From IMG/VR virus record IMGVR_UViG_3300014205_005221, positions 122,051 to 186,050 of that record: DNA of 64,000 bases; one strand, 5' to 3'. The position numbers were made by a program, and so were the translations under genes. Source of the DNA: a virus (lineage: Duplodnaviria > Caudoviricetes). This document shows positions 24,889 through 38,847 of this stretch, piece by piece. The notes under the pieces are model-generated. The model searched no databases, was not told the DNA's origin, and worked only from the letters and a program-made list of their open reading frames with translations. The stretch's first letter is position 1. The number at the start of each line of letters is the position of its first letter.

Positions 24889-26784
24889 TTACAGTCCGGG
24901 CAACTTAAAGCTGTTGCCTGTCTGCATGCCGCGCCACACATCCTCCGCTCCAACAGGAGCATCACCGGCCGCGCTCGACACCCAAAACAGGTCTTGGGGG
25001 TCTTCGTCTGGATCCGTCGTCTCCTCGGCCCCGCCCGTCGTCACGGCGGTGATGACCGCGCCGCAGACAGCATCGGATAAATCCTTAGACCCGCCCGGAG
25101 GATGATCGATCTTGCGCTTCTTGGGATCCTGCTGAAGATGCAGCAGCTCATTGCGCAGCAGACGGCTGTAGGGAATCTCAACCCGACCCTCTTCGACCAG
25201 GCTGCGGAACTGCCGGTACGGCTCATCGGTGCGGTCCATCGACAACAGCGGAGCCTCAATGCCGCCGACCTGAAGGATCTGTCGGTTGTCGACGCTCTGC
25301 CATCCGTCCATCGACGCCGCGCGGATCGGGAAGCCTCGCTGCTGCAGCTCGAACACCAACTGTCGATAGAAGCGAAGCTGGATCTCGCGGGGAGGATCCG
25401 ATTCCAGGTCCGCCTCCAGAGCAATTGCGGTGTCCACCTTCACCACCGGGCGCTCATCCCAGACGAGCTGACCGTTGTACTCCGGATCCTTGCGTGCGAA
25501 CTTGTCCCAGCTCACGACGTGCGCCATGGCGAACCCGGCACGATCACCGTTAAGCGCAAGGTCGCAGTGAGTGGCATACGTAGCGCCGGGGATAGGCTTC
25601 AGCGACTGCGGAATGACAAAGCGAGGGTGCCATCCACCCTGCGCGAACTCCCAGTGGACCTCGATCTCGGGAGTGTCGACCATCGCCGAGTCGACCGAAT
25701 TCTCGGAACGGAAATACGGCGGGAGCATGGTGCGCTCGGGCATGCACAGATACGCCGCGCGAGCCCATTCCGGTTCCGCCTCGAAGTCCGCCACCAGCTC
25801 TTCAGGAACCGGGACCGGAGAGATCTCCTTCTCCAGCTCCACGAATGTCGTGCGCGCCAGCAGCGGATTGAACTCCCACGACGGCATAGGGCCGACGATG
25901 AAGTGCTTAGAATCCGCACCCTTGCGCTCGATGTCTTGCTTAGACTCAGCATGCAGCTGCAGAATCGGCGATCCGTGATACCGGGGATACGAAATGCGAA
26001 CGTTCTTGAATGTTCGTGGAAAACGAGTCACCGCCGAGGAACGCAGCATCTTGATGATGCCCTCCGCAGAACGCATCGGGGTGCGGGTACCGCCGCTTCC
26101 CGTGCGGGCGATGTCATCAGCAGTGCGGAACGCATCGATCTCGTCCGCCACACCGAGAATCAGGTTCAGACCCTCCTGGGTCTCTGCATCCGAGGATCCA
26201 GACACCGACTCCAGGCCACGCGCCCACTCGATCGTATTCTTCTTAGGATCACACTTGTCCGCAAACCACCCCTTGCGGACAATTCGAGTCATAGGCTCGA
26301 AATACGCACGGCGTGCCTGATCCTTGGTAGAAGCCACGTTGAGCATGTGGATCGACTCCGAGGACGGCATGCCGAAGTAATCACGCGGGTCCTTGAGACA
26401 CAGCAGCAGATACGAGATGCGCAACGCCATCAGGCGAGCAATCAAGTCCTTGCCGCCACCCTTGCCGACCAGCAACGTCAGGAAGTTCGCCATCGGAATC
26501 GGCGCCCAGTAATCACCGAACTCCGCCTGCATGTGCGGGTACAGCTCCGGGTAATAGACCCGTTCCGCAGCCCGGAGCGCCGTAGCCTGCGGGACAGACA
26601 ACGGAGACATGCCGATGTAATGCTTGTCCGAGATGAAGACGTCCAGCGGGACAGGCTCTTCCGCGAACAAATCATCGCAGACGCCCCGCGCCGTCGACAG
26701 ACGCTCTTCCGAACCGAGCTGGCGCAGCCATTGAGCCGGAGTCAGAGCGTCATTCTGCTCAACGGCACGTAGACGAGGGGGCAT
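24889..26784 (-). CDS. terL: Terminase large subunit
   Basis: Walker A GKGGGKD, Walker B VADEID, RuvC acidic motifs HCDLA, DGWQS, KDLSDA. Confidence 0.92.
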   Translation of the reverse strand: MPPRLRAVEQNDALTPAQWLRQLGSEERLSTARGVCDDLFAEEPVPLDVFISDKHYIGMSPLSVPQATALRAAERVYYPELYPHMQAEFGDYWAPIPMANFLTLLVGKGGGKDLIARLMALRISYLLLCLKDPRDYFGMPSSESIHMLNVASTKDQARRAYFEPMTRIVRKGWFADKCDPKKNTIEWARGLESVSGSSDAETQEGLNLILGVADEIDAFRTADDIARTGSGGTRTPMRSAEGIIKMLRSSAVTRFPRTFKNVRISYPRYHGSPILQLHAESKQDIERKGADSKHFIVGPMPSWEFNPLLARTTFVELEKEISPVPVPEELVADFEAEPEWARAAYLCMPERTMLPPYFRSENSVDSAMVDTPEIEVHWEFAQGGWHPRFVIPQSLKPIPGATYATHCDLALNGDRAGFAMAHVVSWDKFARKDPEYNGQLVWDERPVVKVDTAIALEADLESDPPREIQLRFYRQLVFELQQRGFPIRAASMDGWQSVDNRQILQVGGIEAPLLSMDRTDEPYRQFRSLVEEGRVEIPYSRLLRNELLHLQQDPKKRKIDHPPGGSKDLSDAVCGAVITAVTTGGAEETTDPDEDPQDLFWVSSAAGDAPVGAEDVWRGMQTGNSFKLPGL

Positions 26785-26808
26785 ATCCCAGTCTTCGTGC
26801 AGTCCGTG

Positions 26809-27468
26809 CTAAGCGGTCATCGCGTAGTAGTCCAGAGGACCCGGAATCCACAGCTCCGATGCCAGCCGGTACAACTCACGGCTGAACGAATCCGACGCAG
26901 CTCCGTACTTCTCGCAAAACACAAACCCCTCGGCCAACAGCTCCGGGATGCTCATCGAAGCACGCTGCGAGTACTTCCGAGCAGCCGCAGCGCCCGAGAT
27001 CCCCGACGCCTTCTCCAAGCGTCGCAACACCGCCTGATACCCCGCCTCCAGCGAACTCGGGTACCGACGATGGATGGGCACCTGGAACAGCAGGTGCCCC
27101 CACTCGTGCGTAAGAATGTCTTCCCAACAATCTCCTACGAGAGCGTTGGTTTCACGCAGTCCTAGAAGCTCGACCTCAGACAACGGGTTCAGCAGTTTGC
27201 GCTTGTTGATCTGCAAAACTCCCTCAACGGTAGTCATGCAGAAGGTAGAAGCATGCGCGTAGTCGTCGCCTAGATCTTTAGCGTGAACCTTCTTAATGCC
27301 TGCGGCCAAGTACGGCCACGCTTCACTCAAGTCGTACAGGTGCTGACGAAGCTGAGGAAGACGCGAGTACTTCCGCAACTGCCAGCTAAACGGGATGAGC
27401 AACTCATGCCCGGGAGGACGCGCCGCGCTCGCAATCGGCTTCACCGACGGAAGCAACGACATAGACAT
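26809..27468 (-). CDS. Zincin-like metallopeptidase
   Basis: THEWGH plus downstream E(LLAE); CGGTAT-N9-ATG. Confidence 0.7.
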   Translation of the reverse strand: MSMSLLPSVKPIASAARPPGHELLIPFSWQLRKYSRLPQLRQHLYDLSEAWPYLAAGIKKVHAKDLGDDYAHASTFCMTTVEGVLQINKRKLLNPLSEVELLGLRETNALVGDCWEDILTHEWGHLLFQVPIHRRYPSSLEAGYQAVLRRLEKASGISGAAAARKYSQRASMSIPELLAEGFVFCEKYGAASDSFSRELYRLASELWIPGPLDYYAMTA

Positions 27469-27491
27469 GCGCCCGTTATACCGTACCTACC

Positions 27492-28085
27492 TCATTGTTG
27501 TGCAAGTTTCGCCCATACAATTACGTTCGAGAGGTAACGATGGGCTGCGCGATCCAGCGTTCCGCCGCACGTGATCAAGCGCAGCTCGGCACCAGAAGTG
27601 TTCTGGTACACATCAGCTGTGGGAAATTCATTCTTGTCAATAGTTGACGTTCGGTACACCTCGAACGCCGCGACAGTCCCATCCTCGCGCTGAACCTCAA
27701 TGCGATCACCCTCGACCACGCTCTTGAGGTTGGCGAAGATTCCCTGCTCACCGCCACCGTTGACGTGCCCCAAGATGACGGCCGGTCCCTTAGCGCCCGG
27801 ACGAGGGCCAAGGTTGTACCAGGACGCCAGCATGGGCTGCTCGACCGGAGGCTCCAAATGTCCGCCCCGAGCATCGAGTCCCAGCCCGTCAACCATGACA
27901 GGACCATCGATGTTGCGCGCGAACACCGATACATTCACCGGACGCGGCTGCACACCAGGCAGAACATCAGCAGGCGCAGACTGCGCGGGCGTGCTCGGCG
28001 CGTCCGGAGCCGCTGCAGTCCCACACCCAGCCAGGACTGCAGCGAACACCAGAACAGAGGCCAAAAGCCCCGCTACACGACTCAC
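27492..28085 (-). CDS. Class F sortase, lipoprotein
   Basis: LAGC lipobox; GPRPG..GPAVILGHV; LRLITCGG...Y..NVIV. Confidence 0.92.
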   Translation of the reverse strand: MSRVAGLLASVLVFAAVLAGCGTAAAPDAPSTPAQSAPADVLPGVQPRPVNVSVFARNIDGPVMVDGLGLDARGGHLEPPVEQPMLASWYNLGPRPGAKGPAVILGHVNGGGEQGIFANLKSVVEGDRIEVQREDGTVAAFEVYRTSTIDKNEFPTADVYQNTSGAELRLITCGGTLDRAAHRYLSNVIVWAKLAQQ

Positions 28086-28687
28086 TCCGTCGAACCGTCC
28101 CCGGTCTCAGGCGCATCGTTGGGAACCACGACAACATCCGAGCCGCCTGGAACCACCGTGACCGTAGTCAGAGGCGGAGCTGTGGTGGTCGGGGTGACAG
28201 TCACAGTGGTCGGCGGAGCCGGAGCGCACGCCTTCAACTTGTCATCGATCAGTAGATTGAGCTTGGCCTGCGCGTCTGCCAGAACCTTCTTCAGCTCCGT
28301 CAAAGGCGTGGTGCTTGCAGCATTGATAAACGCCGTCACCGCAGCAACGAAATCACCCTGAGCCTTGGTCAGCTTGGTCTGCAGGTCCAACAGAACCGCA
28401 ACCGACGCCTTCGCTGCAACCGCCGAAGCGTACGCATCTCCAGCCTTCGCAAGCACATCCTGCTTCAAAAGAACCTGCGTCTGCAAACCCGCGAGCGCGG
28501 TATCCGCGTCAGCCAACTTGTCGGAAGCGTCGACTACCACCTGAGCCTGAGCCACCACACGAACTGTCGCGGTCACACACCCAGCAGAGTCCGGGCCAAC
28601 GGCAGGTGCTGCTGCCGCCAGCGGAGCAAACACTGACAGCGAAGCGGCTACCAAGCCGCTCACCACCAGCAAACGGAACTGCTTCAT
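28082..28687 (-). CDS. Secreted helical protein, putative sortase F substrate
   Basis: Signal peptide, Ala-rich coiled coil, P/T linker, C-terminal VPNDAPETGDGS. Confidence 0.7.
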   Translation of the reverse strand: MKQFRLLVVSGLVAASLSVFAPLAAAAPAVGPDSAGCVTATVRVVAQAQVVVDASDKLADADTALAGLQTQVLLKQDVLAKAGDAYASAVAAKASVAVLLDLQTKLTKAQGDFVAAVTAFINAASTTPLTELKKVLADAQAKLNLLIDDKLKACAPAPPTTVTVTPTTTAPPLTTVTVVPGGSDVVVVPNDAPETGDGSTE

Positions 28688-28735
28688 CTCACGGTCTCCT
28701 TGATCGGGGATGAGACCTTACGGGTAGCTATTCGG

Positions 28736-29419
28736 CTATGCAGTCTCACTTACACAAGTGTAAGTAGGAAAGCTGTCGTCCGCGTTTGATCGTGTGCAGC
28801 GGATGTTTTCCAACGGGCTAGAACTAGGAAAAATGAACTCCGCTGGCGGCTGACCCGGAGCACCCGCAGGTCCCTGCGCCCCAGGCGGACCCGTGTCGCC
28901 CTGCGCCCCCTGCACGCCCTGAGGACCCTGCACGCCCTGGATACCCTGCGCGCCAGCGGTGCCCGGCTCACCCGGAGTACCGGCCGTACCTGGCTCACCA
29001 GGCGTACCCGCGATACCCGGCTCACCAGGAACACCCTGCGGGCCCGTAGCACCGGGGATGCCCGGAATGGGGGCGATCTTGACCCGCTCAGCCTGCGAAC
29101 ACAGACCGGACGGCAGAGAACTCTTGGCATCGGAGTCCGCGCACGCTTCAGAGATTTGGCTCGCCAGCGTCTTAGCCTGCCCAGCGGTGGCATCGCGCTG
29201 CTGCACCACCAAATCCTTCTGGGTGGTGACATTTTCGACCTGGCGGTTGCTGGTCTTCACGGACAACACCAACGCCGTAGCCGCAACGATGAGAGCAACC
29301 CCGACCAGCACCGGCCACAGACGCTTGAGCAGCGAAAGAAAATCCGGACGGTTATGTCGAGAACGATTTTTGGGACGGTTCGCGGGTACGCCCGCAGGCA
29401 TCGGGAACGCTCGGGTCAT
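28736..29419 (-). CDS. Membrane-anchored collagen-like protein
   Basis: One TM helix, coiled coil and a long G-X-Y run. Confidence 0.8.
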
Positions 29420-29865
29420 GTCAAGTCACCACAGTTCGGAGGCGGTGGCAGAGGTGCGGCTGCCCGAACCCTCTCCAATTCACGGATTGCAGAAATATAC
29501 TTCTGAGTCTCACGAGCAGCCGCTTCACGATCACCAGCCAGCGTGGCGGTCAACAGCTCCACCTGAGCCTGCGTCTCCACGCGCTGAGCTTCACTGCGAT
29601 CAGTCAGCGCCTGAGAAACAGCTTTATTGTATGTAATCTGGCAGGAAGTAGTTCGATAGTAACTAATTCCGGAAAGAACAACTAAGATGAGGATGGCTAA
29701 TCCAACAAACGAACGGAAAAGCTCAAACTTGGTAGCCCTCACCCTCTTACCTCCGGTCGTTGTTGCATCAGCCTGGGCAGACCGAATGGCCAGCCAACAT
29801 GTAGCCCAACCCAGCACAAAGCCGCCACCAGACCACAGCAGTGCGGAGTACAGGGAAGGAGCCAT
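29416..29865 (-). CDS. Two-TM membrane protein
   Basis: Hydrophobic helices, operonic. Confidence 0.7.
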
Positions 29866-30101
29866 TAGTCGACCTTTGCCGGTTCCGGATCTTCCTCTTC
29901 TTTATCCTCTTCAGGATTGCCGTTCTTGTCCTTGTTGGACCTACGCGACAGGGCTAACGCTCCACCAACAATAGCCATAAAAATACCATTGATAGCAACG
30001 TCCGGACTGTAGTCCTCAACAATGAACTGCGCCGCAAAATTAATGGCCCAGACCACAGTGACGACAACAATGATCGCCGTCGCCAGTGGCTTAGGGATCA
30101 C
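29865..30101 (-). CDS. Two-TM membrane protein (holin-like)
   Basis: Two TM helices and a charged tail. Confidence 0.65.
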   Translation of the reverse strand: MIPKPLATAIIVVVTVVWAINFAAQFIVEDYSPDVAINGIFMAIVGGALALSRRSNKDKNGNPEEDKEEEDPEPAKVD

Positions 30102-30475
30102 TCTTTCGTCCTATGCTCAGGCCGATTAACCGGCGGAACCTCATACCGAAGTCGCCACGCTCCCCACAGCATCAGACTGACGCCGATCAAGCTGAGAGCA
30201 AGGCGATAATGAGCATGATCGCCAATGTGGTCAACTTCAGTACCGATCACGATCATGGCAAACAAACACTGAGCAGTCAGTCGAGCCTGCTGTCCTGAAG
30301 CTCGGGCATTCAGCACTAACCGTGGTGTCCACACGATTAACGCAAGTCCCAACAACATCGTGATTACTCGTACAATGTCGACCCAAAAAACAAGAGGCCA
30401 GGCAAACGGGGTGCCAGGTCCATCAGGAGCACAGAGTGCGTAGCAATCCCTTGCGTATAAGATTGTCGGTAACAC
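30098..30475 (-). CDS. Three-TM membrane protein
   Basis: Hydrophobic helices. Confidence 0.65.
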   Translation of the reverse strand: MLPTILYARDCYALCAPDGPGTPFAWPLVFWVDIVRVITMLLGLALIVWTPRLVLNARASGQQARLTAQCLFAMIVIGTEVDHIGDHAHYRLALSLIGVSLMLWGAWRLRYEVPPVNRPEHRTKE

Positions 30476-30507
30476 AGCTTGAACCCCCGCTCAAGCGGAA
30501 GCTCAAA

Positions 30508-30771
30508 TTAGGATTTATTGAGCTTCTTGGACATGCCAAACTGCTTTAAAGCTGCCTGAGGCGAATCAAACTTCTGCTTGTAATTGTCCCAGGATCCAGA
30601 CCACTTGTCGCCAATACGCTTCACCACGGCCACCTTCGCGCCCTTGGCATCCACGATCTGGCGCTGGCCCGGAGGAAGCGTCGGGTTGGACGCAAACCGA
30701 TAGCCACTCGACGTTGTGGAATCCGCCGAGCTGTCCTTCTTCTTGTTCACCCACGGAGGTGCGGCGCCCAT
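30508..30771 (-). CDS. Hypothetical basic protein
   Basis: Coupled to the upstream gene. Confidence 0.6.
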   Translation of the reverse strand: MGAAPPWVNKKKDSSADSTTSSGYRFASNPTLPPGQRQIVDAKGAKVAVVKRIGDKWSGSWDNYKQKFDSPQAALKQFGMSKKLNKS

Positions 30772-31649
30772 CAGCCGTTGCCCTTCGATTTGGGCGCCTT
30801 GGCCGGGTTCTTGATCGGCCCCTGCGCGATGTACTGCCGATAGAGACGCTTCACAGAGGCGGGAACCATCGCCGTAAGCCCGAGAGCCTGCGCCGCCTTC
30901 ACCACCTCAGCTGCAGCAGCCCCACGCTTGCCATCCGGCAACCGCTCAATCTGTCCGAGAGCGCTTTTCAGCTTTCCCTCATTGCCGATGTCCCCAAAAA
31001 CCTTGCCGCCCTTGTACGTCTTCTCTCGGGCAACGTCTTTGAGCGAGGAACGAAGCTTGTCCGCAGTGGCCTTAGCCCCTGCCGAACTACCTGTCTTCGC
31101 TACGGTCTTCAGAGCATCGCCACCAGGGGCACCCTGACCCAGCTGCGTGCCGATCGGCTTCCGATACCGACGAGCACCCGCCATCGTGCGAACCCGAGCC
31201 AGCGCGATCTCTTCGCTGTCACCGGTAGACGCCTTGCGCAATTCGAGAACGCCCGACAACGCGCCCGCACGGCGTGACGCTGACGCGGCCACGAACTCCA
31301 TACGAACCTTCTGCGGCGCGCCGAACTTCACATCGTCAACCGACGTGCCCGGAGCAGCCACGGTGTAGGGAATCCGCAAGAATCCCTCAGATTCGGAGTC
31401 ATCACACGAAACAATGACGTGATCAGTCCACAACTCTTTAATGTACGCATGCATCAAAGGGTCGCGAACAACTCGCTCTGGCTCAATCTCATCTGAGACA
31501 GCATGCAAGGTGGACTTATACGCTTCCCTGCGACGCTGCCTCAGTGCATACCACGCAGACCGCACCAACTCAGTGTTAAACCGAGAAACTGGTGCGGCCT
31601 GCGCCGCAGCAACTTTCTGCAGCGCCGTTAAATCCGACGCCTCAGACAT
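30771..31649 (-). CDS. Hypothetical protein, probably virion-associated
   Basis: Late region; RVRT..GARRY..PIG motif. Confidence 0.65.
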   Translation of the reverse strand: MSEASDLTALQKVAAAQAAPVSRFNTELVRSAWYALRQRRREAYKSTLHAVSDEIEPERVVRDPLMHAYIKELWTDHVIVSCDDSESEGFLRIPYTVAAPGTSVDDVKFGAPQKVRMEFVAASASRRAGALSGVLELRKASTGDSEEIALARVRTMAGARRYRKPIGTQLGQGAPGGDALKTVAKTGSSAGAKATADKLRSSLKDVAREKTYKGGKVFGDIGNEGKLKSALGQIERLPDGKRGAAAAEVVKAAQALGLTAMVPASVKRLYRQYIAQGPIKNPAKAPKSKGNG

Positions 31650-32772: not shown

Positions 32773-34941
32773 TCAGCTCTGAATCTGAGCGGCCAGCACG
32801 AACCATCCGGTACCCGATCGGTTCCGTAGTCCGAGGAACAGTCGCTTGTTGATGGGGACGGCAATCGGAGTAGCGATGCCAGACGTCAGCAGCAACGAAC
32901 CATTCAAAGTCAACGTGAGCGCGGCGTTGGCGGTGATTTCGTAGTTAATCTGATCACCATCAATTCCCTGAGTGGGAACTGCCAATGTAGCAGTGGCACC
33001 AGTGGTAGTTACTCGATACACAGTGGCAATAGTGGAATCTACGTTAATAGTTCCACCGTTAGCAACGTTAGAAAGAGTGGTAATTACCGGCTCTACACGA
33101 CCGCCAACAATATGCCAGTTTGCACCGTCTGAAATAACCTCACGGAACCCACCAGACATTGAAATTACTTCAGTAAGCTGTCCGTCAATAGTTTCGGTGC
33201 CGTTAGGGTCGATAGTCAACGCATTCGCGACACTACCGGCCAACTTCTTGATGATGAACCGACGACCCGTACGGCCAGCCGCCGTAGGAAGGGTCGCAGT
33301 CATTGCGGCAGATGCTGTGTTGAAAACAACTACGCCATCAGTATCTACAAGAGTATAGCTAGCAGTCTTAACCGAGTACGGGCCTAAAATCAGCTGATAG
33401 TTTGTGTGATCGTTAGCAGCTGGATTAACGTGATCATCAAAAGTGACTTTAGGCGTGTAATACGAAACCAACGAGTCCGGCTGACCCGGGGAATGCGAAA
33501 ACGCGTGTGTCGTAGGAACACGTGCGTTGGTCATACGAGAGTCATCACCGGCAGCCACGGTGCTCGCCGCCGTGCCCACCGGAAGGTTTCCGTAGGGAAC
33601 CTTGGACGACCCATCCAACGGCGCGTACCCCGACGCCGCACCACGAGCCGACAAATCCTGCTTCAGGTTCAAAGCGGTCTGTTCCGCTGTAGAAATTGGC
33701 TTGTTAGCATCAGAAGTATTGTCGACGTTACCCAGTCCCACATCGCCCTTGGCAAGGGCAAGAGTGGCTTTCAGCTGCGCAGGAGTACGCGACGACCATG
33801 CACCCGCAACGGACTGAACAACATTATCTGTTGTGGCAGTAAGCGCTGCAATCGCCGTAAGATCAGCATCAAGAGGCTGCTTACCATCCAAAGCAGTCTG
33901 CTGTGCAGACGATACCGGCTTATTGGCATCTGAGGTGTTGTCAACGTTTCCAAGACCAACATGAGTCTTGGTAATTCCCGTAGGCGTACCGGTAAACGCA
34001 GGTGACGCCAGCGGAGCCTTCAAGTCCAAAGCGCTCTGCGTAGCCGAAGAAACAGGCTTGGACGAATCCGAAGTGTTGTCGACGTTTCCAAGGCCGACGT
34101 CCGCCTTGACCAGACCAAGAGCAGTCTTGAACTGCGCGTAAGTCTTCTTAATCCACCCGGCGCCGTCCGATGCAATTGCGCCAGCCGTAGACGCGTCGAG
34201 AGCAGCAATGGTTGTCAGATCAGAGTCTGACGCCTGCTTACCGTCCAGCGCGGTCTGCGTAGCAGAGCTGATCGGCTTATTTGCGTCAGACGTATTATCT
34301 ACGTTACCCAGACCAACGTGTGTCTTGGTGATTCCCGTCGGAGTACCCGTGAATGCGGGAGAGGCAAGAGGCGCCTTCAAATCCAGCGCACTCTGCTGTG
34401 CGGACGACACCGGCTTCGAAGCGTCAGCCGTGTTGTCAACGTTTGCGAGTCCCACATCAGACTTGGACAACGCCAGCGACGTCTTCAGCTGAGCCGGAGT
34501 CCGAGACGCCCACGCAGAACCGACTGACTGAATTACGTTATCAGTAGTGGCTGTGAGTCCAGCAATAGTGGTCAAGTCAGAATCTAACGGCTGCTTGCCG
34601 TCTAAAGCGGTCTGCTGCGCAGAAGATACAGGCTTAGCAGAGTCCGCCGTATTATCCACATTGCCAAGGCCAACATCGCTCTTGACCAAACCCAGCGTCG
34701 CTTTGAGCTGAGCAGGCGTACGTGACGCCCACGAAGAACCGACTGACTGCAGCACATTGTTCGTGGTCGCAGTCAGTCCGGCGATAGTCGTCAGGTCAGA
34801 ATCGAGAGCCTGCTTACCGTCAAGAGCGGTCTGTGTAGCAGAAGATACGGGCTTGTTGGCGTCAGAAGTATTATCTACGTTCCCTAACCCAACATCAGAC
34901 TTATTCGGCAGCTCGTACTGAGCCTTCTTCAGCTTAGTCAT
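32773..34941 (-). CDS. Tail-fibre-like repeat protein
   Basis: Seven KxxVGL(G/A)NVDNT(S/A)DxxKP(V/I)S repeats; C-terminal TLP.A...G.ETIDG...SDG.NW fibre motif. Confidence 0.8.
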   Translation of the reverse strand: MTKLKKAQYELPNKSDVGLGNVDNTSDANKPVSSATQTALDGKQALDSDLTTIAGLTATTNNVLQSVGSSWASRTPAQLKATLGLVKSDVGLGNVDNTADSAKPVSSAQQTALDGKQPLDSDLTTIAGLTATTDNVIQSVGSAWASRTPAQLKTSLALSKSDVGLANVDNTADASKPVSSAQQSALDLKAPLASPAFTGTPTGITKTHVGLGNVDNTSDANKPISSATQTALDGKQASDSDLTTIAALDASTAGAIASDGAGWIKKTYAQFKTALGLVKADVGLGNVDNTSDSSKPVSSATQSALDLKAPLASPAFTGTPTGITKTHVGLGNVDNTSDANKPVSSAQQTALDGKQPLDADLTAIAALTATTDNVVQSVAGAWSSRTPAQLKATLALAKGDVGLGNVDNTSDANKPISTAEQTALNLKQDLSARGAASGYAPLDGSSKVPYGNLPVGTAASTVAAGDDSRMTNARVPTTHAFSHSPGQPDSLVSYYTPKVTFDDHVNPAANDHTNYQLILGPYSVKTASYTLVDTDGVVVFNTASAAMTATLPTAAGRTGRRFIIKKLAGSVANALTIDPNGTETIDGQLTEVISMSGGFREVISDGANWHIVGGRVEPVITTLSNVANGGTINVDSTIATVYRVTTTGATATLAVPTQGIDGDQINYEITANAALTLTLNGSLLLTSGIATPIAVPINKRLFLGLRNRSGTGWFVLAAQIQS

Positions 34942-34949
34942 GCCGCTCC

Positions 34950-35552
34950 TTACAGCGCGTACATATTCAGAACGGCATCAGTCAGCGTTGGGCGCTCATT
35001 TCCGCTCAAGGCTGTGACGAGCGCACCCACCAGTCCGCTCAACAGGCCCTGTCCACTCATTCGGTACGCAGTAGACTTGATCTGCAACTGCGCGCCGTAC
35101 TGGCGAACTGGTGCCGAGGAATACACCGGGTACTCGAAATGCACCGCTCCGTTGGGAGACACCACCTGATCCGGCATGTCCACCCGGCCCAAGGAATCCG
35201 GCAGCGGAAAATAGATAGGGGAGCCCGGGACAGGGCACATGAAACGAACCGACAGCTTCACGTACGTATTCTGAGTATTCAGAGCCATGGCAAGATCTAG
35301 GGAAATGCTATAGCTCTGTTCAGCAGTCATACTCTGATTCGGCCAAATAAGCTGATTTGTGTAATCATATCTAGAGACCGGAAACGTGTTCATGTCACGC
35401 GTAGACGCACCCGATGCAAACGGGATGACCTGCCAATCGCCAGTAAGCGTCAGCGGCGAAGCACGGTTCATCGAGACACGCTGTCGAGGTGTAGCCGGGA
35501 GCATGTCTTTCGCACGGTCCTGACTTGACACATATAAACGCATGTCAGCCAT
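34950..35552 (-). CDS. Putative minor structural protein
   Basis: Position within the fibre operon. Confidence 0.55.
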   Translation of the reverse strand: MADMRLYVSSQDRAKDMLPATPRQRVSMNRASPLTLTGDWQVIPFASGASTRDMNTFPVSRYDYTNQLIWPNQSMTAEQSYSISLDLAMALNTQNTYVKLSVRFMCPVPGSPIYFPLPDSLGRVDMPDQVVSPNGAVHFEYPVYSSAPVRQYGAQLQIKSTAYRMSGQGLLSGLVGALVTALSGNERPTLTDAVLNMYAL

Positions 35553-36475
35553 TACGCTGTCTCCGTTCCGAGCACACCGCCCGACATGAACAAGCGGTAA
35601 TTCACTCCGCTAACGCGGTCCTTGAGGACCACACCTTTAGTTGCGTCCGTTACAGCAATGTCCTCGCTAAAAGACCCGGCAAACACAGCAGCCTTGGAAT
35701 AGACGATCACGACCTTGTCGCCCGACACGAACGCACCCTCAGCGGGAGTGACCTCTACCGTGGTCGATGTAGGCAATGTGTATTCCGACGTTTGCAACTG
35801 CTGACCATTCAGAAATACAAGCTGAACGCCGTAATTTGTCTGCGCAAGAGTAAAAGTTTTTGGAGTACCCGCAGTTGGTGAAAACGTCTCTACAGCATAC
35901 GGCTGAAACGTATTGACCGTGTATGCACCAGCAGTTGCTGAAATAACAATTTTATCAGTAGCATCGTTAGGCGCAATAGTGACGTTGGCTCCCGCCTCCA
36001 ACGCCGCTCCCAGCGCATCTCGGGCACGCTCATCCGCGTCCGAGATGTTCAGCTTCAAATCAAAAGCAGTCTGCTGCGCAGTGCTTACCGGCTTATTGGC
36101 ATCAGAAGTATTATCAACATTGCCGAGACCAACATCGCCCTTGGCAAGCGCCAGCGTGGCCTTAAGTTGCGCTGGCGTTCGACTAGCCCACGCCGACCCC
36201 ACCGATTGAATAACATTACTTGTTGTAGCAGTGAGGCCAGCAATGGTTGTTAAATCAGAATCAACAGGCTGAGCACCAATATCGGCAGGACTCAACGCAT
36301 CAGGACCGCCAATGGCGTGCGTTGATTTGTGAGCTTTGGGATCACGCGTATCCGAAAGACGGGGATCATTGCCCTCTGCTGCCGTCCCGGCGGTAGATCC
36401 AAACGTCACCGATGCATCTGAACCATCCTCACCCGGAGGACCCTTCAGATTCCCGCGTGCAGTCCACGTAGCCAC
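35552..36475 (-). CDS. Fibre-like protein
   Basis: GNDPRLSD, H..GG.D, one GLGNVDNTSD repeat, VFLNG. Confidence 0.7.
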   Translation of the reverse strand: MATWTARGNLKGPPGEDGSDASVTFGSTAGTAAEGNDPRLSDTRDPKAHKSTHAIGGPDALSPADIGAQPVDSDLTTIAGLTATTSNVIQSVGSAWASRTPAQLKATLALAKGDVGLGNVDNTSDANKPVSTAQQTAFDLKLNISDADERARDALGAALEAGANVTIAPNDATDKIVISATAGAYTVNTFQPYAVETFSPTAGTPKTFTLAQTNYGVQLVFLNGQQLQTSEYTLPTSTTVEVTPAEGAFVSGDKVVIVYSKAAVFAGSFSEDIAVTDATKGVVLKDRVSGVNYRLFMSGGVLGTETA

Positions 36476-36504
36476 GTACTACTCCAGGTATCAGTAACTA
36501 CGAA

Positions 36505-37071
36505 TCAGGGAGTGCGCTCGTAGTATGTTCCGGTAACAGAATCCAGATACCAGTCGCCTACAGCCTGACCAGAGATGGTGCCCGGAACGCCAGCATCGGA
36601 ATACCACTGAGACCCACGAACACCCGCAGATCCCGTATCACCGGTGTCACCCTTCACACCCTGAATACCCTGGATTCCCTGATCACCCTGATCGCCCTTG
36701 GGGCCTGTAGCGCCGGTGTTACCTGGCACGCCCTGGATACCCTGCGCACCCGTGGCACCCGTGGAGCCCTGCACACCCTGAGGACCCTGTGGGCCTCGAA
36801 AGGCCACACCAGAACCGTCAGCCGGGAAGCTGGTGCCGCCCCAGACGTAGAGCTTGCCGTCCGCCTCTACCAGGTAGCCCTTACCGCGATCAGCAAGAGT
36901 GTCTTCCAGGTCATCCGGAAGATCCGCATACGTGGGAACCGTTCCGGCAATGGCGACACCCGCGCCATCCTCACCCGGAACACCCTGGATACCTTGAATA
37001 CCCTGGGCTCCCTGAGGACCCTGATCTCCTTGCGGTCCCTTGATGTTACCGCGCTGAGTCCACGTGGCCAT
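36505..37071 (-). CDS. Collagen-like minor structural protein
   Basis: G-X-Y repeats; GDWYLD..TG..Y. Confidence 0.8.
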   Translation of the reverse strand: MATWTQRGNIKGPQGDQGPQGAQGIQGIQGVPGEDGAGVAIAGTVPTYADLPDDLEDTLADRGKGYLVEADGKLYVWGGTSFPADGSGVAFRGPQGPQGVQGSTGATGAQGIQGVPGNTGATGPKGDQGDQGIQGIQGVKGDTGDTGSAGVRGSQWYSDAGVPGTISGQAVGDWYLDSVTGTYYERTP

Positions 37072-37998: not shown

Positions 37999-38847
37999 CT
38001 ACAGGCCCAACGCCTTCCGGACAGCTGGGCCAGCCTCACCGTCCACCGTGAGCTTGGCGCGCTGCTGCAGGTACTTCACAGCCACAACGCTGGCAGGTCC
38101 GTACCGACCATCCACAGTCAGCGGCCACCACACAGGGCGGGCGGTCTTATACCAGGCGTTGAGCACGCGCTGGAGATCCTCGACGTCCTTGCCTGTCATG
38201 ATTGGCTTTGACGGGTCGTAATAAAGAACGCGCGTACCTGTCGAAGGGGAAGTTGTGGATGATCCCTTGCGAAGCTTGTTCAGCACCCGCTGACACTCCG
38301 CCTCGGACTTGATGATCTCAAAGTGCATCTCATCCTTGCGGCCCGAGTAGTCACCGCCCCAGCGAATGCAGCCCTCGCACTCGACGTTCACAATGGTGTG
38401 AATTGTCTTCACCTGCGCCGCAGTAAACGTTCCGATCTTGCCGAGAGGGTGCTTAGGAGCCGCCCAATCGAATGCCGTACCGCTGCTGTGGTTGGACAAA
38501 CTCGACGCCGCCAAAAGCGTGTCTTCATTGTCGAAACAACACGGACGGTTGGCGCTGTGGATCGGTGTCAGATCATCGAGACCCGGCTGGATGGCCGCTG
38601 CCATGAGCTTGCGGTCAGCGGGAGAGAGCAGGAACCCGCGAATGTCGCGGTACGCATAGCCCCACATGCCGTAGCCGGTGCCACCGTTCTCCACCCGTGA
38701 ATGGAGCTGGGCGGCGCAGTGCAACAGCAGCTCACCGGTCGGACCCTTCCGGAGCCCTCCGGGGAACACGATCGACGTGCCAGGCAGAGTGGGATTGTAG
38801 ATGACCGACTTATCGCCAGCCACGTAACCATTCTGAGAAACAACCAT
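37999..38847 (-). CDS. Endolysin: M15 peptidase plus peptidoglycan-binding domain
   Basis: SNHSSGTAFD, WGGDY..RKDEMHFEI; DG.YGP...AV..LQ....L.VDG..GP. Confidence 0.9.
   Translation of the reverse strand: MVVSQNGYVAGDKSVIYNPTLPGTSIVFPGGLRKGPTGELLLHCAAQLHSRVENGGTGYGMWGYAYRDIRGFLLSPADRKLMAAAIQPGLDDLTPIHSANRPCCFDNEDTLLAASSLSNHSSGTAFDWAAPKHPLGKIGTFTAAQVKTIHTIVNVECEGCIRWGGDYSGRKDEMHFEIIKSEAECQRVLNKLRKGSSTTSPSTGTRVLYYDPSKPIMTGKDVEDLQRVLNAWYKTARPVWWPLTVDGRYGPASVVAVKYLQQRAKLTVDGEAGPAVRKALGL

Follow-up and report, generated by a model that had tools for sequence, protein, structure and literature searches.

What is a sortase doing in a phage genome, directly behind a secreted protein with a sortase-type motif near its C-terminus? 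This question is raised by positions 27492-28687 of a 64,000-nucleotide stretch of viral DNA (Duplodnaviria; Caudoviricetes), below called the window, which is the last 64 kb (positions 122,051 to 186,050) of the 186,050-bp contig of an uncultured phage (IMG/VR record IMGVR_UViG_3300014205_005221). Two genes on the minus strand are concerned, one encoding a secreted protein of 201 amino acids (aa), the candidate substrate (28082..28687), and the following one encoding a class F sortase of 197 aa (27492..28085). According to our analysis, it is fairly probable that they form a two-gene module which fixes a phage protein covalently to the envelope of the infected cell, the carrier being an apparently lytic 186-kb actinophage.

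The sortase gene has a GTG start, and its product matches the Pfam family Sortase (PF04203) with an E-value of 4.9e-20. An earlier note, made from the DNA letters and a list of open reading frames (ORFs), had described a lipoprotein class F sortase with His and LITC motifs and an LAGC lipobox, and all these elements are in place. The lipobox L-A-G-C (residues 18-21, 28023..28034, minus strand, as all the features of this pair) follows the n-region MSR and a 15-residue hydrophobic region, with Cys21 as the predicted lipidated N-terminus. Between the lipid anchor and the catalytic domain there is a Pro/Ala-rich tether (residues 22-50, 27936..28022) with a low predicted local distance difference test score (pLDDT) and no secondary structure in the model. 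The catalytic His107 belongs to LGHV (27762..27773), invariant in an alignment of 20 homologues, and the catalytic Cys173 to RLITCGG (27561..27581), where Arg169 is invariant too and L[IV]TC is found in 115 of 120 homologues. In YLSNVIV (strand beta-8, 27516..27536) an invariant Asn187, placed at the start of the last strand, occupies the position where other sortase classes carry the catalytic Arg. Thus His107, Arg169, Cys173 and Asn187 are all invariant between the window sortase and the 19 homologues aligned with it. Replacement of the catalytic Arg by Asn has been described for actinobacterial class F sortases (PMC6998099).

By its lipobox, the enzyme is a predicted lipoprotein. Since a lipobox is present in 88 of 110 full-length homologues, the lipoprotein form is a trait of the family and no peculiarity of the phage. 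The gene caller of the public record placed the start at Val45, but we favour the longer form with the GTG start, because the N-terminal lipobox is conserved in homologues.

Profile hidden Markov model (HMM), fold and tree all point to a class F sortase. The NCBIfam model class_F_sortase (NF033748 / IPR042001), with a curated cut-off of 166, gives it 162.3 bits (E 6.4e-48), while the next best sortase family reaches E 1e-6 and all other classes have E>=1e-6. The sortases of phage relatives score 149-170 bits on NF033748, and two of them reach the cut-off. The AlphaFold2 model (pLDDT 86.8, above 90 in the catalytic domain) matches 126 solved sortase chains in Foldseek at E<=1e-3 with identity of at most 20%, the best match being A. 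oris SrtA (1.9e-8); there is no entry labelled class F among the matches listed. Sequence search against PDB gave no match for the single sequence and one weak match for the profile.

In the tree, which did not include other sortase classes as an outgroup, the window sortase branches within a set of 79 class F-like sequences from actinobacteria (Pseudonocardiaceae, Streptosporangiaceae, Streptomycetaceae and others). It belongs to a clade with 99% Shimodaira-Hasegawa-like approximate likelihood ratio test (SH-aLRT) support, comprised of nine metagenomic and three viral sequences and no reference bacteria, and several viral-only clades are seen elsewhere in the tree, one of them with 6 members at 96% support. 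The closest reference-bacterial sortase is at most 58% identical to the window enzyme, and a metagenome scan with the sortase yielded distant relatives alone (37-50% identity, on short contigs).

The gene of the candidate substrate starts with ATG, with AAGGAG 8 nt upstream. Its product begins with a signal peptide (residues 1-26, 28610..28687) that has a basic n-region, a hydrophobic stretch at 6-24 and A-x-A at 24-26, A24 and A26 being invariant in relatives. It is followed by a helical hairpin passenger (residues 35-154, 28226..28585) bounded by the conserved Cys37 and Cys154, a Pro/Thr-rich disordered stalk (residues 155-187, 28127..28225) and the putative sorting motif V-P-N-D-A-P-E-T-G (residues 188-196, 28100..28126), which contains the LPXTG-type pentapeptide A-P-E-T-G (residues 192-196). 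By sortase chemistry, cleavage is predicted to separate Thr195 from Gly196, and the leaving peptide would be D-G-S-T-E (28085..28099), five residues, acidic and with neither a transmembrane (TM) segment nor a basic tail. The C-terminus as a whole reads VPNDAPETGDGSTE and is not a canonical LPXTG-type cell-wall sorting signal, as the hydrophobic segment and the positively charged tail after the motif are missing. The earlier note had seen a secreted protein without these two elements; the signal peptide and the ending were found as described, but their lack turned out to be a common variant of class F-associated substrates and nothing odd.

No match to the substrate was found in Pfam, NCBIfam or PHROG. 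In the AlphaFold2 model (pLDDT 81) helices 35-91, 96-126 and 129-153 score above 90, with Pro/Thr disorder from there to the end. Fold searches in PDB, BFVD and ESM Atlas returned generic coiled-coil hairpins only, with E>0.006, and no functional analogy is claimed from these matches (colicin receptor domains, EmrA, RipA/RipC coiled coil). A profile search among 1.84 billion representatives produced about 44 true relatives. They share a common plan, consisting of a signal peptide, T-G-P-D-x-x-A-C, a helical region, a second Cys, a Pro/Thr linker and then P-x-G-x-x-x-T-G, with an Excalibur-like insert D-x-D-x-D-G-x-x-C-E before the latter in some of them. Columns C37, A109, C154, T195 and G196 are invariant in the 44 relatives, and P189 is at least 90% conserved. 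The majority of hairpin relatives stop 1-6 residues past T-G, and one (P0152) has G-D-G-S-T-E at its end just like the window substrate. The chains of four relatives (P0002, P0125, P0127, P0138) extend into a hydrophobic segment and basic residues, and these classical tails tie the motif to sortase sorting signals. In particular, P0002 has an ending as in the window substrate, then a TM segment and RR. It probably adjoins a sortase (P0013) that is 60% identical to the window one, since both are listed from the same 2451-bp contig of the Joint Genome Institute (JGI). A scan of viral contigs with the substrate alignment gave no match.

The association of this motif with class F sortases extends far beyond the window. 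The survey covered 80 actinobacterial and 22 IMG/VR loci, chosen by sortase similarity, in which the ORF ending just before each sortase was read; the motif counts come from two tallies of the same loci, hence the ranges. The gene directly before the sortase encodes a secreted protein ending with P-x-G-x-x-x-T-G in 60-63 of 80 bacterial and 16-17 of 22 viral loci. Position -4, left free in the search pattern, is Gly in 59/60 bacterial, 17/17 viral and 25/31 hairpin-family sequences, and the consensus signal is [V/T]-P-x-G-[G/A]-[P/V/A]-[E/Q/D]-T-G. From the pattern P-x-G-x-x-x-T-G the window motif keeps Pro189 (position -6) and T195-G196. The TM segment and basic tail are present in 34 bacterial loci by hydropathy (in 35 there are more than 12 residues after T-G), and 25 bacterial loci, about 40% of the motif-bearing ones, have at most 12 residues there; for the viral loci these numbers are 2-3 with TM segment and basic tail and 14 with at most 12 residues. 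Endings of 1-12 residues after T-G being so common, the missing TM segment and basic tail are a normal variant.

The passengers encoded upstream of the sortases are diverse: Ig-like and Excalibur-like domains occur among them, besides the helical hairpin. An HMM of the hairpin only, used because an iterated one from the upstream ORFs picked up signal peptides and low-complexity linkers, matches the upstream ORF in 6/22 viral and 0/80 bacterial loci. The full substrate-family profile had no real match in 400 genomes of the host class, and the hairpin passenger has been seen in viral or metagenomic DNA only. The hairpin and family counts include related sequences and are descriptive only.

Moreover, the two genes are tightly linked. 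The GTG start codon of the sortase overlaps the TGA stop codon of the substrate in GTGA (28082..28085), which reads as translational coupling to the motif-bearing protein, in agreement with the earlier note. Similar arrangements are seen elsewhere, with overlaps of 1-4 nt in L088, L090, L094 and L100 and gaps of 0-5 nt in L093, L098 and L002. An independent assembly of the landfill metagenome DNA run from which the contig probably stems reproduced positions 27300-28900 without a difference at depth 32, and therefore an assembly error or frameshift artefact at the junction is unlikely. A programmed -1 frameshift fusing the substrate to the N-terminal helix of the sortase was considered as well and rejected: no slippery heptamer is seen, a second stop follows two codons on in the substrate frame (TGA GTC GTG TAG), and short tails are common in relatives. 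Complex prediction for sortase residues 45-197 and substrate residues 160-201 gave 0.25 against a mark of 0.32, which weighs neither way. The pairing of sortase and substrate is far beyond chance: all 44 relatives share T195 and G196, at least 90% of them share P189, and the motif recurs upstream of most sortases examined.

The pair is embedded in a phage genome. The window contains 27 tRNA genes, a portal gene (phrog_113), the large terminase gene (TerL), a gene for a 3121-aa head protein, tail fibre genes (32773-37071) and an endolysin gene (37999-38847), and no tyrosine or serine recombinase (integrase, resolvase) was found on the 186-kb contig. Thus the source contig is a large phage, probably with a lytic lifestyle. 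The order of transcription on the minus strand is tail fibres, p224, p109, p292, p87, membrane proteins of 125, 78 and 149 aa, collagen-like membrane protein (227 aa), substrate, sortase, 219-aa HExxH protein, TerL and portal. The earlier note had placed the pair between collagen and membrane genes and the terminase; the collagen-like gene and three membrane protein genes do lie upstream, while downstream the terminase comes past the ORF of the 219-aa HExxH protein. The same note had suggested a late-type motif CGAATAG; it occurs by chance, with 4 copies in 64 kb against 4.46 expected and as many in 60 of 100 shuffles. Promoter- and terminator-like sites across 26500-31000 are at chance level, too.

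Comparison of two related IMG/VR phages delimits the module further. From p109 to the portal, L086 (89.8 kb; TerL 80% and portal 78% identical) keeps the gene order of the window, with all six genes of an island present. Its sortase is 53% identical to the one of the window, and its substrate has another passenger (Cys-rich, Excalibur-like) and a full tail, RPKGAPETG followed by a hydrophobic segment and basic residues. In L106 (153 kb; TerL 65%, portal 62%) p109, p292, p87, the HExxH protein and TerL are found, and the island is missing. Its presence in L086 and absence from L106 indicate that positions 27492-30475, by gene content, are an accessory block of six genes for exported and membrane proteins, present in some members of the phage group. 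From the same comparison, the sortase-substrate part diverges faster than the genes around it. Cargo has been swapped in the conserved island, as the genes that precede the sortase in the two sister phages (L086 5318-5932 and window 28082-28687) encode unrelated passengers and differ in tail type.

The module is not unique to the window phage. A survey of phage sortase neighbourhoods, proposed in the earlier note, was made here: class F sortase relatives are carried by 22 IMG/VR contigs, those with the module being 6 to 186 kb long, and the motif-ending ORF is directly upstream in the 16-17 already mentioned. In at least nine viral loci the pair is near terminase, portal, tail or endolysin genes. 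In L100 the pair is followed by TerL (phrog_9) and then by the portal, and in L088 by one ORF and then TerL (phrog_38); L092 has the pair and then an endolysin. Tail proteins are encoded near the pair in L089, L091, L093, L098 and L101, and a helicase in L090. In L094 (3952-8122) the pair is inserted between TerL (phrog_2) and the portal (phrog_533), whose genes are usually adjacent. Since the terminase families differ among the loci, several phage lineages carry the module. The claim that sortases are unusual phage cargo has held: the window sortase has no PHROG match, tblastn with it gave 0 matches in 50,697 deposited phage genomes, and an October 2026 preprint (Yuan & Chen, bioRxiv 10.64898/2026.10.24.761521) calls phage sortases previously undocumented. 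In one surveyed locus (L087, IMGVR_UViG_2918313847_000001) the sortase pair is identical to the chromosomal locus L071 of Pseudonocardia parietis, and this locus and some other 'viral' ones may be host DNA in predicted prophage regions. In L002 (827-3910) a 1027-aa ORF upstream of the pair resembles, by eye, an ATPase with an intein-like insert (C...HN-S junctions).

The bin in which the contig was placed gives a hint at what the module might meet in its host. With 186,050 bp, the contig is by far the longest of this bin, the longest of its other 397 contigs reaching 49 kb. At identities of at least 90%, the housekeeping proteins of the bin group with metagenome-assembled genomes (MAGs) labelled Candidatus Nanopelagicales. 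The bin has one sortase of its own, a class E enzyme with 230.6 bits (G000 C305, L003 514-1224, minus strand), which adjoins an ORF resembling, by eye, a pabA/trpG-type amidotransferase. Class F sortases above the cut-off occur in 170 of 401 genomes of the host class and in 0 of 5 near-complete genomes of the bin's own family; the 401-genome tally includes ten unpublished genomes (G042, G029, G006, G035, G023, G303, G014, G262, G372 and G031), on which only counts rest. Among 13,605 ORFs of the whole bin, the motif ends the substrate and one spurious frame only. Should this bin be the host, both the enzyme and its only possible target would come from the phage. The bin itself has class E only.

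How could the module work? In the mechanism proposed here, derived from general sortase chemistry and the gene anatomy, one message would carry both genes, with the sortase start coupled to the substrate stop. The substrate would be exported by Sec, lose its signal peptide after Ala26 and fold into a helical hairpin of about 120 residues, probably closed by a Cys37-Cys154 disulfide, atop the Pro/Thr stalk. The sortase, exported as well, would be lipid-anchored at Cys21, and its tether, flexible and about 29 residues long, would hold it close to the outer surface of the membrane. Here it may recognise the extended signal V-P-x-[G/D]-x-x-x-T-G, the proposed cleavage target being the substrate peptide VVPNDAPETGDGSTE. 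Cys173 would attack the Thr195-Gly196 bond with release of DGSTE, and the acyl-enzyme would be resolved by an amine of a wall precursor (lipid II stem peptide or cross-bridge), leaving the hairpin on peptidoglycan. As the substrate has no membrane-retention tail, it is presumably captured because its synthesis is coupled to that of the enzyme and the enzyme is tethered to the membrane.

The phage would most likely benefit from an altered cell surface during infection, which could either block phage adsorption to infected cells and debris or change the wall before lysis. For a lytic phage, one would first think of masking the surface against further adsorption. The main alternative is a link to lysis, considered because the holin-like 78-aa neighbour is conserved and an endolysin adjoins the pair in L092. 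Decoration of virions is unlikely, since enzyme and substrate would be outside the membrane, and heads and tails are assembled inside. More tentatively, and with less confidence than in the anchoring itself, class F might represent a distinct sorting route, with an extended P-x-G-x-x-x-T-G signal, often tail-free, and a lipid-anchored Asn-type enzyme, which several actinophage lineages would have domesticated with a phage-restricted, disulfide-closed hairpin in order to re-surface their hosts, some of them lacking a class F sortase of their own.

Several observations weigh against covalent anchoring to the envelope as proposed here. The window sortase is 3.7 bits below the curated cut-off of NF033748. 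Its partner has Asp in position -4 of the motif, where Gly is usual (Asp is found in 5 of 31 hairpin-family members), and is without the two elements on which retention depends in classical sorting, the hydrophobic segment and the basic tail. There is no biochemical evidence for any actinobacterial Asn-type class F sortase, and the quadruple class F knockout of Actinoplanes missouriensis had no phenotype. The host assignment is weak, the phage contig having been binned with a MAG, and the public sequencing runs that hold the stretch are one landfill DNA run, with no RNA run listed. Finally, the holin-like genes of the island and the endolysin of L092 would also fit a lysis-related role.

The last point leads to the other explanations of the same genes. 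The module might serve lysis, if, late in infection, protein attached in large amounts to lipid II or to the amines of stem peptides reduces cross-linking or conditions the wall in another way for timely action of holin and endolysin. The holin-like 78-aa island protein, with its two TM segments, has counterparts of 85% identity in L086 and 62% in L092; in the latter the pair directly precedes an endolysin (phrog_3084), and lysis cassettes of many phages, such as lambda, sit just before the terminase. However, the window endolysin is about 10 kb off, behind the tail-fibre genes, the pairs of L094, L100 and L088 are at packaging genes with no visible lysis genes, and the same module is common in bacteria, where a lysis role is impossible, so that this explanation seems improbable. 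Slightly better placed, though still rather unlikely, is a protein acceptor: the sortase would cut at T-G and join the hairpin either to a second copy, through a lysine, so that pilus-like polymers arise, or to the collagen-like neighbour, and a protein layer or fibre would result. Short-tailed substrates would not be held in the membrane beside lipid II, the sortase fold is closest to the pilus-type class C as well as to class A, and the collagen-like membrane protein stays beside the pair in L086 and partly in L092. On the other hand, neither a pilin motif nor a conserved lysine stands out among the invariant residues (C37, A109, C154, T195, G196), a collagen-like neighbour is missing from the majority of other pairs in phages and bacteria, and the relatives with TM segment and basic tail resemble ordinary wall-anchor signals.

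It is also conceivable, but quite doubtful, that the upstream protein is no substrate at all, and the sortase releases or re-anchors surface proteins of the host, T-G being coincidental or otherwise used. The contact between the two proteins is a predicted one, and the motif is unlike every experimentally proven sortase signal, but T-G is invariant and P-x-G conserved both in relatives and in about 75% of independent sortase-adjacent loci, no other bin ORF ends with the motif except the spurious frame, and the coupling is kept across phages. As for an inert, decaying host operon captured recently, which the earlier note had named as one outcome that would undo its interpretation, the wide distribution of the module in bacteria is compatible with it, but we regard it as very improbable: both ORFs are intact with catalytic residues kept, reference-bacterial sortases are so distant (the above 58% at most) while the window enzyme belongs to the 99% viral/metagenomic clade and there are several more viral-only clades, the sister phage has kept the synteny of the island although the sortase there is only 53% identical, and a search of 400 genomes of the host class gave no hairpin passenger. 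Covalent display of the phage protein on the host envelope remains the preferred explanation.

The neighbours of the pair have features of their own. The collagen-like membrane-anchored protein (28736..29419, minus strand; Pfam Collagen 9.7e-16), with a homologue in the same place in L086 (4496-5290), is of type II, with a basic N-terminus, a TM segment at 36-54, a coiled coil, G-X-Y repeats over roughly residues 120-190 and a small C-terminal domain, and it is kept beside the sortase pair in that sister phage. A collagen repeat tethered to the membrane instead of being tail-borne is unusual. The three small membrane proteins of 149, 78 and 125 aa (29416..30475, minus strand) have the same order in L086, with identity of 43-85%. 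The 78-aa one (29865-30101, minus strand) is holin-like, having two TM segments and a charged tail; in L092 its counterpart is about 2.6 kb before the endolysin, and in the window the distance to the endolysin is about 8 kb. On the other side of the pair, three related phages encode, directly before the large terminase, a protein of some 220 aa in which the HExxH-type motif H-E-x-G-H is conserved (window 26809-27468, minus strand; L086 6516-7175; L106 9224-9892). It has no match in Pfam, NCBIfam or PHROG; a zinc peptidase is one possible identity, and a small terminase of unusual type, in the position usual for TerS, is another.

Among known systems, accessory envelope lipoproteins of phages, such as lambda Bor and T5 Llp, are encoded at the late, lysis or packaging junction and alter the surface of the infected cell, Llp blocking the receptor. 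They differ from the present module in being non-covalent lipoproteins of phages with Gram-negative hosts, whereas here a transpeptidase would fix the cargo to a Gram-positive wall. Much closer is the likeness to chromosomal actinobacterial class F loci, which have the same enzyme family, gene order and C-terminal motif, and a lipobox in most close homologues. Five such loci are known in S. coelicolor, and Actinoplanes missouriensis has SrtF1-4 with the adjacent AMIS_11010 and AMIS_36440; the authors of a recent study of the latter noticed the secreted proteins encoded beside srtF1 and srtF4, found no canonical pentapeptide in them and set them aside, yet called them possible substrates. The sole class F enzyme studied, P. 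acnes SrtF, is a housekeeping sortase using LPXTG. The present module differs from the chromosomal loci in its location on a phage, its tight coupling and its hairpin, absent from the 80 bacterial loci and 400 genomes searched.

Class F is the sortase class with neither an established physiological role nor an agreed recognition motif (literature including PMC6998099). The phage pair and the survey provide a concrete candidate enzyme-substrate pair and a consensus signal for it, and this consensus would explain why searches for LPXTG/LAXTG missed the neighbours of srtF genes. About 40% of the putative bacterial substrates are tail-less, and, if they are truly processed, the textbook rule of retention is not general. 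The consensus signal and the tail-less form may interest sortase specialists more than the phage angle, and compact sortase-tag pairs of new specificity would be useful in protein ligation.

The most similar phage system is that of the gut huge-phage modules with sortase B and an upstream substrate (Yuan & Chen). Both systems have a phage sortase and, directly upstream of it, a gene for a secreted protein with a PXTG-type ending; in both the passengers differ from phage to phage, and display of phage proteins on the host surface is the role proposed there. The gut modules, however, have class B enzymes with His-Cys-Arg, Bacillota hosts, genomes above 200 kb, and substrates where the motif is followed by a hydrophobic segment and a basic tail, while the module described here has a class F lipoprotein with Asn for Arg, actinobacterial hosts, contigs of 6 to 186 kb, an extended and mostly tail-less P-x-G-x-x-x-T-G, and a helical hairpin passenger. 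The present pair would work like the gut huge-phage sortase B module without belonging to it, and what differs from the preprint is the enzyme class, the host phylum, the signal, the frequent lack of the retention tail and the cargo. With a second sortase class now seen in actinophages from landfill and other environmental samples, at no fewer than nine loci flanked by hallmark genes, covalent re-surfacing of hosts may be a wider phage strategy.

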